A stretch of DNA of 64,000 nucleotides from Candidatus Woesearchaeota archaeon (GCA_020637495.1 JACJVV010000001.1:366232-430231), one strand, 5' to 3'; counted from the stretch's first letter, positions 45,732 to 46,694 are shown. Made by a program: numbers and translations. Notes: generated from the sequence alone by a model not told the origin.

Positions 45732-45777
45732 AAAACATTTAAAAAAGAACTTGCAGTTCTGATATTCATTACGTTTT

Positions 45778-45851
45778 GGGGACGTAGTATAAGCTGGTTA
45801 GTATAGTTGGCTCCAGACCATCGGATCGGGGTTCAAATCCTCGCGTCCCCA
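45778..45851 (+). tRNA. tRNA-Trp (anticodon CCA)
   Basis: Acceptor stem GGGGACG/CGUCCCC with discriminator A. D-arm GUAU-AAGCUGGUUA-GUAU. Anticodon arm GUUGG-CUCCAGA-CCAUC with a single U:U mismatch. T-arm CGGGG-UUCAAAU-CCUCG; no encoded CCA and no intron. Confidence 0.8.
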
Positions 45852-46013
45852 TTTTCTATTTAGGATTTGAACATGCTCTCACTTCGTTCGGCAGTTTGCT
45901 CACTTCGTTCACAAACAATCCTCGCGTCCCCATTTTCTATCTAGGATTTGAACATGCTCTCACTTCGTTCGACAGTTTGCTCACTTCGTTCACAAACAAT
46001 CCTCGCGTCCTCA
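45852..46013 (+). repeat. Two tandem ~81-bp repeat units immediately 3' of tRNA-Trp, each ending in a copy of the tRNA 3' end
   Basis: Units 45852-45932 and 45933-46013 are ~95% identical. Each starts with GGATTTGAAC (the reverse complement of the tRNA T-loop half), contains the internal direct repeat CTCACTTCGTTC x2, and ends with AATCCTCGCGTCC[C/T]CA (last 16 nt of the tRNA; 1 mismatch in the distal copy). Confidence 0.85.
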
Positions 46014-46076
46014 TATTTTATTCTATATATCTGCCTAAACAAATGCTTAAATATCATTGTTTTACATTGCAATAAA

Positions 46077-46694
46077 ATGCTATACAAAATAATCAATTCT
46101 AGGACAACTGAGTTAGTGGATAAGTTGAGAGACACAAGAACCAAGTCATTTGCATTCTCTACAATAGTGGATGAATTGGCAGCGATTCTAGCTTATGAAG
46201 CTGGAAAGGATCTTCCTATGCTTACTAAGGAAGTTCCTCATTGGCAAGGTACTTATGAAGCAAAGTATGTTGATCAGTCAAGGATAGGCATATTTCCTGT
46301 GCTTAGGGCAGGAATTGGTATGGAAAAAGGTGTAAGGTCACATTTCCCTAATGCTTCAGTCTATCATCTAGGCATGAGACGTGATGAGACTACAGCAGAA
46401 CCTATATGGTATAGAGAACCAGAGAATGTCACTTGCGAGTTAGCGATACTTCCTGATCCGATGCTTGCAACAGGTGGTAGCGGTGTTGAAGCGATGAAGC
46501 TAATTGAGAGCTATGGATGCAAAAGAATGAAGATGCTATCAATTGTTGCTGCTCCTGAAGGAATAGCAAGGATTGAAAAAGAATTTCCGCAAGCAGATAT
46601 CTATGTCACTGCACTGGATGAAAGGTTAAACGAACAATTCTTTATTCTTCCGGGATTGGGTGATGCAGGCGACAGGATATACAATACTCAATGA
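46077..46694 (+). CDS. upp: Uracil phosphoribosyltransferase
   Basis: PRPP-binding loop (AILPDPMLATGGSG) and a C-terminal ILPGLGDAGDRIY motif. The ORF-track start at 45948 lies in the repeat and is rejected in favour of the Met at 46077. Confidence 0.85.
   Translation: MLYKIINSRTTELVDKLRDTRTKSFAFSTIVDELAAILAYEAGKDLPMLTKEVPHWQGTYEAKYVDQSRIGIFPVLRAGIGMEKGVRSHFPNASVYHLGMRRDETTAEPIWYREPENVTCELAILPDPMLATGGSGVEAMKLIESYGCKRMKMLSIVAAPEGIARIEKEFPQADIYVTALDERLNEQFFILPGLGDAGDRIYNTQ

Follow-up and report, generated by a model that had tools for sequence, protein, structure and literature searches.

Tandem hairpin-bearing units behind the tRNA-Trp gene of a Candidatus Woesearchaeota archaeon: a possible intron-like cassette at the T-loop

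Introduction

How archaeal tRNA genes gain introns at odd positions, and why the ends of tRNA genes draw insertions, are long-standing questions. The T-loop is a classical sub-location for recombination at tRNA genes, and in the 3′ flank of the Escherichia coli tyrT gene about three tandem 178-bp units each carry the final 19 nt of tRNA-Tyr; these units are not known to hold an inverted T-loop copy or the hairpin motif described below. In a published model, the gain of tRNA introns and the occurrence of tRNA fragments are tied to integrating elements (Sugahara et al. 2012, PMC3293823). DPANN tRNAs are known to have introns with a bulge-helix-bulge (BHB) structure at T-loop position 59/60, e.g., in tRNA-Cys and tRNA-Pro of ARMAN-2 (PMC3239211), and GCGAAGC mini-hairpins are extremely stable DNA hairpins that occur at priming origins (PMC13037366). 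Here, we describe two tandem 81-bp units that follow the tRNA-Trp gene in a 64,000-nt stretch of Candidatus Woesearchaeota archaeon DNA (GCA_020637495.1 JACJVV010000001.1:366232-430231); this whole stretch is called the window, and all coordinates are counted within it.

The best explanation that we can offer, put forward tentatively and at somewhat less than an even chance, is that a small, intron-like cassette without coding content targets the tRNA T-loop and that the units are its copies, here in a "restored" configuration that later underwent tandem duplication. Within one tRNA gene family there are an empty site, a presumably spliceable T-loop intron, and a related sequence behind a restoring, duplicated 3′ end.

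Anatomy of the tRNA-Trp locus

The tRNA-Trp (CCA) gene occupies 45778-45851 on the + strand, as do all features described in this section unless otherwise stated, and has neither an intron nor an encoded CCA end; it was located by reading the sequence and was called at 45777/8-45851/2 by ARAGORN and Rfam (52.9 bits with the Rfam tRNA model). The gene is thus contiguous, unlike one interrupted by a BHB intron. A single array at 45836-46021, with a period of 81, 2.3 copies, and 95% matches, was reported by Tandem Repeats Finder, which confirms the two tandem units that an earlier inspection of the DNA alone (hereafter the sequence-only reading) had placed behind the gene. The same reading had noted that the final 16 nt of the tRNA recur 81 and 162 bp downstream, with one mismatch in the distal copy, and this holds: the core, AATCCTCGCGTCCCCA, starts at 45836, 45917, and 45998, the third copy reads CCTCA (1 mismatch), and each of 100 shuffles gave 0 matches.

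Core copy 1 (45836-45851) is the final 16 nt of the tRNA itself, from A58 of the T-loop to the discriminator, and completes the functional gene. Unit 1 (45836-45916) comprises this core, a T-rich trailer, an inverted T-loop copy, and two short hairpins, and unit 2 (45917-45997), which begins with core copy 2 (45917-45932), is 98% identical to it, with differences at 2 of 81 positions (45860 T/C, 45891 G/A). Core copy 3 (45998-46013) reads AATCCTCGCGTCCTCA, followed by TATTTTATTCT; its single C-to-T change would keep a G2·U71 pair possible, and the trailer after it is also found behind the tRNA-Trp 3′ end in the metagenome locus L220. With GTTCA included, the repeats extend to 21 nt with a 5-nt indel, and they also take in 8-13 nt of trailer. 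TTTT follows every core, and consecutive cores are separated by only 65 bp. No further copy of the unit occurs within the 64 kb, leaving a single locus.

Each unit carries AGGATTTGAAC (45862-45872, and again at 45943-45953), the exact 11-nt reverse complement of tRNA positions 45831-45841; the sequence-only reading had recognized this inverted T-loop copy but had put it at the very start of the unit, and it sits 10 nt after the core. The 11-bp hairpin between the T-loop region and its inverted copy, the one pairing of the region that stands out, has z = -3.1 (DNA parameters) and is present in the RNA-fold centroid. A conserved block of about 40 nt, TTAGGATTTGAACATGCTCTCACTTCGTTCGGCAGTTTG, covers 45860-45898 and 45941-45979. 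Motif copy 1 is the 13-nt CTCACTTCGTTCG at 45878-45890 (from 45959 in unit 2), flanked by TGC/GCA (45874-76 and 45891-93), and motif copy 2, at 45899-45910, belongs to hairpin 2, GTTTG-CTCACTTCGTTCA-CAAAC (45894-45916; 45975-45997 in unit 2). The internal direct repeat that had been noticed twice in each unit, the 12-mer CTCACTTCGTTC, is accordingly present in four copies (at 45878, 45899, 45959, and 45980), with no further copy on either strand of the 64 kb and a chance expectation of ~0.14 matches in that length. Each tip has the minus-strand sequence CGA-AC-GAA-GT-GAG, a mini-hairpin of the GNA type with tandem G·A pairs at its closure, and d(CGAACGAAGTGAG) and d(CGAGCGAAGCGAG) are both predicted to fold as mini-hairpins with such pairs.

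Units and empty sites in related Woesearchaeota

The sole close relative of the downstream upp gene (64% amino-acid identity) lies in L224 (GCA_047602755.1), which is syntenic with the window and in which an intron-less tRNA-Trp is followed by two tandem 107-bp units, each ending in a 16-nt core that continues that genome's own T-stem (CCTGG), AATTCTGGCGTCTCCA and then AATTCTGGCGTCCCTA. The block TTAGGATTTGAACATGC-N-CTCACT-(N)-TCGTTCGGCAGTTTG is nearly invariant between the window and L224, and blastn gives 80-83% identity for the units vs 67-70% for the flanking genes. The units are, on this sequence comparison, not fresh scars: two of them occupy the corresponding site in a genome whose neighbouring genes show no more than 67-70% identity, and the block is better conserved than that. 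The tip in L224 is ACGATAGT, with a GNNA loop instead of GNA, and hairpin 2 of the window is not kept there. All differences between cores and tRNA in the two genomes are C-to-T and would preserve G·U pairing, and AT-rich TATA-like boxes stand ahead of the block, notably TTTAATTAATTA in L224. A micro-ORF (open reading frame) from ATG 45873 or 45954 (23-41 codons) was rejected: within the conserved block, L224 has an indel that breaks this and any other reading frame, so that the block is not coding and the constraint falls on non-coding sequence.

Relatives without units were reached via Trm1 (62-71% identity), and the order surface protein, tRNA-Trp, trm1 is kept in relatives that lack both the units and upp. 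The tRNA-Trp gene has an anticodon-loop intron in L226, L230, and L232, an anticodon-loop intron together with a D-loop insert in L229, and no intron in L249 and L250, all of them without units; the tRNA-Trp 3′ flank is empty at the syntenic site in L226-L233 and L249/L250. Because the surface-protein locus is syntenic in these unit-free relatives, it is not the cargo of an insertion at tRNA-Trp; the sequence-only reading had noted that this tRNA is also the boundary of the 16-kb surface-protein locus. It had proposed to compare the junction across strains, and the comparison across relatives does reveal the absence of the units from sister lineages, with the surface locus syntenic there.

Across the sister tRNA-Trp genes (L226-L233, L229, L246), 1-3 inserts are present, in the D-loop, anticodon loop, or T-loop, and none of the insert-bearing genes was called by ARAGORN as run. 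The sister anticodon-loop intron contains the C/D-box-like elements GGAGCGA(A/T)GAGC ... AATGAC. Descent of the cassette from the relatives' anticodon-loop intron or flanks was rejected, as local alignment scores fell within the shuffled range, and a "retro-copy plus leftover intron" model is weakened by L249/L250, in which tRNA-Trp is intron-less and without units.

A T-loop insert in a close relative

L246 and L229 are 85-88% identical over 6 kb, and of these two only L246 has a 44-nt insert in the tRNA-Trp T-loop, running from ACGGTCACTTCGTTCGGTACTT to GTTCGAAAGT between GGGTTCGAAT and CCTGG (written out, GGGTTCGAAT / ACGGTCACTTCGTTCGGTACTTCCGAACGTTACCGTTCGAAAGT / CCTGGCGTCCCCA). The fold comprises the T-stem, a 3-nt bulge, a 4-5-bp helix, and a 2-3-nt bulge (-28.8 kcal/mol, z = -3.4), and cuts in both bulges would restore a normal T-loop. 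On this folding model, the insert is a BHB-type intron at about position 59/60, presumably spliced out. It holds TCACTTCGTTCGG(T/C)A(C/G)TT, the core of the block that is conserved in the units of the window and L224, and MAFFT aligns the insert with both; within ~150 kb of Woesearchaeota loci, the block was found only at tRNA-Trp. A related sequence is therefore present or absent in the T-loop of ~86%-identical genomes, which indicates that insertion at tRNA-Trp is real.

The tip motif in other Archaea, Bacteria, and phages

The motif pair, defined in the viral scan as two copies of the 12-mer 5-15 nt apart and searched with a slightly relaxed pattern in species-representative genomes, was found at 85 viral loci and, among the genome matches listed, at more than 119 loci; by our own estimate, fewer than one would be expected by chance. 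The hosts among the matches listed include Halobacteria, Altiarchaeota, Iainarchaeum, Thermoplasmata, Methanosarcinales, Bacteroidota, Candidate Phyla Radiation (CPR) bacteria, Acidobacteriota, Actinomycetota, and others. At many of these loci, a hairpin has the 13-mer CTC(A/G)CTTCG(T/C)TCG as its loop, with a stem sequence that varies by locus. Stems of at least 3 bp adjoin 72 of 263 motif copies vs 10 of 263 controls, and of 116 copies that lie outside the search seeds, 94 have a Watson-Crick pair at motif positions 4/10. The purine strand of the motif, (A/G)C-GAA-G(T/C) flanked by GA/GA, corresponds to the GCGAAGC mini-hairpin class. A role of these hairpins as intrinsic terminators was rejected, as no T-run bias was seen on either strand, and six motif-bearing phage loci gave no match at Rfam gathering thresholds.

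In both domains, cassettes with this tip are found beside duplicated tRNA ends or within the T- or D-loop of tRNA pseudo-copies. At 14 of the motif loci, a tRNA is no more than 400 bp away. Of 19 tRNAs near the motif, 10 have their terminal 13-mer repeated within 350 bp vs 2 of 42 others, both exceptions being adjacent tRNA-Ile genes. Behind haloarchaeal tRNA-Gly, -Pro, -Thr, and -Arg stand differing tandem cassettes, each closing with the tRNA 3′ end. At tRNA-Gly of both L195 (Salinibaculum) and L175 (Halorubrum), successive cassettes differ, and these two loci and L205 contain GGATTTGAA(C/T)C; in L205 (Halobacteriales, tRNA-Thr), a perfect 23-nt inverted copy comes after the 3′ end, with a direct copy behind it. 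In the Bacteroidales loci L171 and L124, a tRNA-Cys pseudo-copy, 98% identical, lies beside an intact copy and has a 52-nt motif-bearing T-loop insert after GGTTCG, and in CPR bacteria (Campbellbacteria and another genome; L188, L147) 5′ fragments of tRNA-Ser/-Leu are interrupted by a common cassette. Among these cases, the flanking direct repeats range from ~2 to 29 nt.

These parallels raise the possibility, which we regard as doubtful, that hairpin cassettes of 40-110 nt without a gene, with the tip CTC(A/G)CTTCG(T/C)TCG, make up one family across domains and would enter the T-loop, the D-loop, or tRNA termini; in Archaea they could survive as BHB introns and elsewhere only when a duplicated segment or a second gene copy restores function, with the window as a "restored" intermediate between att-like duplications of tRNA ends and T-loop introns.

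Several further observations concern the motif loci. SSU5-like phage-plasmids (L245, Salmonella phage SSU5 JQ965645.1, 78.7-79.1 kb; ~75 IMG/VR contigs, L003-L087) hold an unannotated motif hairpin pair, ACCT-CTCACTTCGTTCG-AGGT and TGAAC-...-GTTCA, in a 440-bp gap upstream of an RNase H gene. In the related low-GC phages L013 (8930-9840), L063 (1880-2400), and L054 (700-1500, - strand), two inverted motif pairs flank a segment of 135-170 bp, which in L063 holds two 41-bp iterons, and a conserved non-coding stretch of ~200 nt without an Rfam match adjoins this segment; the layout is reminiscent of an origin whose hairpins for single-strand initiation lie on opposite strands. Long tandem motif arrays with periods of 21-32 bp, often running into contig ends (L172 3740-3977, L102 6443-6894, L114, L125, L160, L170, L181, L202), occur in metagenome-assembled genomes of Saprospiraceae, Bacteroidales, Chlamydiota, and Rhodothermales. 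In L097 (- strand), the 5′ half of tRNA-Met has been copied in part three times, in tandem, upstream of tRNA-Met (1871-1944), each copy having the palindrome TCCGCCGCGGCGGA in place of the D-loop and its own AT-rich promoter-like spacer. In L119, L186, and L193 (Candidatus Altarchaeum), short hairpins (e.g., AAAATGC-TTGAA-GCATTTT, CAAAAAC-TTCG-TTTTTG) crowd the intergenic regions, interleaved with the motif.

Neighbouring genes

The ten flanking ORFs include surface proteins upstream and then upp, trm1, DUF192, and UDP-glucose dehydrogenase. The upp and trm1 products match NCBI proteins of Candidatus Woesearchaeota at full identity. The downstream neighbour upp, encoding uracil phosphoribosyltransferase (46077-46694, + strand), was found at this locus in no genome other than the two that bear units; as the sequence-only reading had stated, its start lies beyond the repeats and its ORF-track extension (from 45948) crosses unit 2. 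A TATA-like box of its own lies near its start codon, and upp and trm1 are convergent, 20 bp apart. The best matches of upp are the one Woesearchaeota relative (64% identity) and then bacterial uracil phosphoribosyltransferases (43-50%), and the gene is missing at the syntenic locus in eight related contigs (L226-L233, L246, L249); as the nearest other homologues are bacterial and the syntenic locus lacks the gene in these contigs, the sequence comparison suggests that upp was acquired by transfer beside the tRNA.

Two Logan contigs (SRR12358675/6) carry the same upp, and one of them (L001) shows the tRNA end, a single unit, and a degenerate core. For the upstream 1062-aa protein, an exact-protein look-up gave no record. 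Between 44000 and 48000, the sign of the GC skew flips, and genes lie on the + strand at 31-46.7 kb and on the - strand at 46.7-59.7 kb; this switch at the locus may reflect transcription strand bias and no more.

Searches for RNA features and donor elements

An Rfam search of the window (at gathering thresholds and at E ≤ 10) matched only tRNA and signal recognition particle RNA (Archaea_SRP); on the units there was no match, with all other matches at E > 1. No acceptor-type minihelix can form on either strand, and inspection by eye of both strands for a C/D box, H/ACA, a hepatitis delta virus (HDV)-like ribozyme, an acceptor minihelix, a split-tRNA half, or a T-box found the defining boxes or pairings to be absent. 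The alternative offered by the sequence-only reading, a small repeated RNA or tRNA mimic, gains no positive support, and the folding z-scores are -0.1 to -1.1. No BHB joining the 5′ part of the tRNA to core 2 or core 3 was found by inspection and folding, and the units in the window are not introns.

The 16-nt core gave four chance matches in viral sequences, all in high-GC coding sequence; the unit junction gave no viral match, and the conserved block only 11 chance coding matches. BLAST of the unit against plasmids and phages yielded only marginal motif-level matches to SSU5-like replicons, and a literature search by sequence string returned primer coincidences only. The integrase or viral attP that had been proposed as a check was found neither among the ten flanking ORFs nor in the viral, phage, and plasmid collections.

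A proposed origin and its alternatives

Under the cassette explanation, the insertion junction would lie at T-loop position 57/58. The first copy of the 16-nt 3′ segment, with its T-rich trailer, would complete an uninterrupted tRNA-Trp; behind it would follow a ~50-nt cassette, made up of the inverted T-loop copy and two short hairpins with a common 12-13-nt tip, and then the displaced 3′ segment. The module of 3′ segment and cassette would later have been doubled, with unequal crossing-over or gene conversion across the direct repeats of 16-29 nt keeping its copies alike. The displaced cores would be dispensable for tRNA function, and any action of the cassette would be that of the DNA or of a hairpin. 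The cassette would interrupt the gene in L246, lie in a spare copy in the bacterial cases, and, in the window and L224, follow a duplicated 3′ segment that leaves the gene intact. The insertion would most likely have come by recombination within the T-loop, through a tyrosine-recombinase-type exchange or through homology. We infer that the window, L224, L246, and the parallels form one mobile family and that the insertion came with the restoring 3′-end copy; the conserved block would be the part recognized by the mobilizing machinery. This account agrees in spirit with the att (attachment-site) idea of the sequence-only reading, of which the repeats from T-loop to discriminator, the empty sites, and a real insertion at a tRNA are retained, but it does without an integrase, an attP donor, an element body, or cargo, and takes the structure to be old and partly conserved.

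Several observations weigh against this explanation. Only two genomes carry the units, and with k = 31 the single unit of L001 may be an assembly collapse, so that it was not counted as proof of polymorphism. The similarity between the L246 intron and the units extends over only ~20 nt and includes the widespread motif, so that the two may have converged, and in L246 the motif lies in a stem and internal loop, not at a hairpin tip. BHB splicing of the units themselves was rejected, no compatible helix adjoining the would-be 3′ splice sites, folding of the cassette was not significant, and that of the whole region was no better than shuffles on either strand. Pfam scans of the ten flanking ORFs revealed no integrase, transposase, or recombinase, the viral, phage, and plasmid collections no donor element or attP, and BLAST, run all against all on the ORFs up to 3 kb from the motif at 123 loci, no shared neighbour protein family; at none of the loci is a recombinase or transposase nearby. 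Flanking repeats that vary from ~2 to 29 nt make no single insertion chemistry evident, and a 40-nt block kept over long divergence points to a host function outside this model.

One alternative is a set of classical att scars, in which a larger integrative element, equipped with a tyrosine integrase, once resided at tRNA-Trp, maybe brought upp, and eroded to its att-proximal arms, which were then duplicated. Such integration is documented for archaeal SSV- and pNOB8-type elements (PMC3293823), and here the direct repeats do span the T-loop to the tRNA 3′ end, the sole mutation and the native-looking trailer are both in the distal core copy, and the repeated 12-mer is a candidate arm-type binding site. 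The restriction of upp at this locus to the two unit genomes, with bacterial nearest homologues (43-50%) outside the pair, would also suit an imported gene; however, upp lies outside the repeats, has no core copy beyond it, and ends 20 bp from trm1. Neither an integrase remnant in the ten flanking ORFs nor a matching attP in the viral, phage, and plasmid collections was found, the same 65-100-bp remnant must have persisted in two lineages (67-70% gene identity) while being more conserved than the genes, and the L246 T-loop intron is left unexplained. We consider such scars an unlikely source of the units. Local rearrangement without any mobile element has a different appeal: stable hairpins beside a heavily transcribed, palindrome-rich tRNA gene could induce template switching or slippage, giving direct, inverted, and again direct copies of the tRNA end, as tandem-inversion duplications do, and then unequal crossing-over. 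An X - X′ - X layout is explicit in L205, with its perfect 23-nt inverted copy between direct copies, and is also seen in L195, L175, and the window; the native trailer is included in the repeats, the 98% identity of the units is expected from recent unequal exchange, and GCGAAGC-type tips are exceptionally stable DNA hairpins (PMC13037366). Yet the source of the cassette sequence, which has no counterpart in the relatives' flanks or introns, the cross-domain recurrence of the 13-nt tip, and the clean insertions without duplication in L246 and L171 are all left unexplained by rearrangement, and the junctions differ from the symmetric palindromes that a simple model predicts. We regard this origin as quite improbable.

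The conservation of the 40-nt block above the neighbouring genes, with constraint on non-coding sequence, speaks for a functional cis-acting or small-RNA module, in which three tRNA-like 3′ ends with U-runs would serve as stacked terminators or processing sites and an anti-T-arm trailer would trap read-through, insulating or regulating upp, or in which each unit would be a small gene of its own. The TTTT behind every core, the AT-rich TATA-like boxes ahead of the block (TTTAATTAATTA in L224 in particular), the hairpin between the tRNA and the anti-T-loop copy (z = -3.1), and core substitutions that are all C-to-T, with G·U pairing expected to survive, are consistent with such a role. It is opposed by the lack of an Rfam family match, by overall folding that is not significant, and by the absence on inspection of C/D, H/ACA, HDV-like, or minihelix features; moreover, upp has a TATA-like box near its start codon, hairpins of the motif at other loci are free of U-run bias on both strands, and sister lineages manage without the module. 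We see little probability in it, about as little as in local rearrangement.

Comparison with known systems

If the window, L224, L246, and the parallels are indeed one family, they would represent a minimal gene-less insertion element that targets tRNA genes, a testable route from insertion to intron, and a source of non-canonical tRNA introns. Halobacteria, Bacteroidales, and CPR bacteria have the same tip in cassettes linked to tRNA genes, and it is also seen in origin-like regions of phages. If they are not one family, the locus would still be a clean case of concerted evolution of tRNA-end repeats together with a conserved non-coding block.

Among known systems, att duplications of the kind left by SSV-type and pNOB8-type integrases are like the units in that the repeats run from the T-loop to the 3′ end, with the proximal copy rebuilding the tRNA and the distal copy decaying. 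The units differ in having no integrase or element body, in their 65-bp spacing and tandem arrangement, in their conservation across deep divergence, and in that no attP donor was found. BHB introns at T-loop position 59/60 (PMC3239211) are represented by L246, whose intron contains the units' TCACTTCGTTCGG block, and the repeat boundary of the window falls in the same loop; the window differs in that its tRNA is uninterrupted, its cassette lies behind a complete 3′ end, and no BHB was found. Common to the model of Sugahara et al. (PMC3293823) and this locus are direct repeats made of tRNA fragments, introns that one genome has and a close one lacks, and the proposal that the two are linked. 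Their case involves a 1.8-kb insert with a recombinase gene on the 5′ side of tRNA-Thr, whereas here the inserts are of 44-110 nt and gene-less, with a tip motif that also occurs in Bacteria and phages. The E. coli tyrT flank likewise has tandem units with the tRNA 3′ terminus behind a tRNA gene, but it is bacterial and its unit size and content differ.

Small hairpin repeats offer another likeness. Repetitive extragenic palindromic (REP) sequences and bacterial interspersed mosaic elements, MITEs (transposable elements of the miniature inverted-repeat kind), and REPs associated with REP-associated tyrosine transposases (RAYTs) are likewise short, non-coding, hairpin-forming, often arrayed or mosaic, and gene-less (PMC2817692). 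However, REPs are lineage-specific with hundreds of dispersed copies, whereas a single tRNA locus in the 64 kb has the unit of the window, its tip is cross-domain, and no RAYT-like gene is nearby. Nor does the unit behave as a MITE, its ends matching weakly (ATTTGAAC vs GTTCACAAAC), its flanking repeats varying from ~2 to 29 nt, and no other copy existing in the 64 kb; nor is it a CRISPR-like (clustered regularly interspaced short palindromic repeat) array with unique spacers, as the two "spacers" are 97% identical to each other. The GCGAAGC/GCGNNAGC mini-hairpins at single-strand initiation signals and phage origins (PMC13037366) share with the units the purine-strand tip (A/G)CGAAG(T/C), as in ACGATAGT of L224, and in L013 and L063 inverted motif pairs flank iterons much as in ssiA/ssiB-type origins. 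No replication function is indicated at the tRNA-Trp locus, and its A-T-closed variant falls outside the sequences with verified stability. The locus is best filed as a meeting point of tRNA-end att duplications, non-canonical T-loop introns, and small hairpin repeats.

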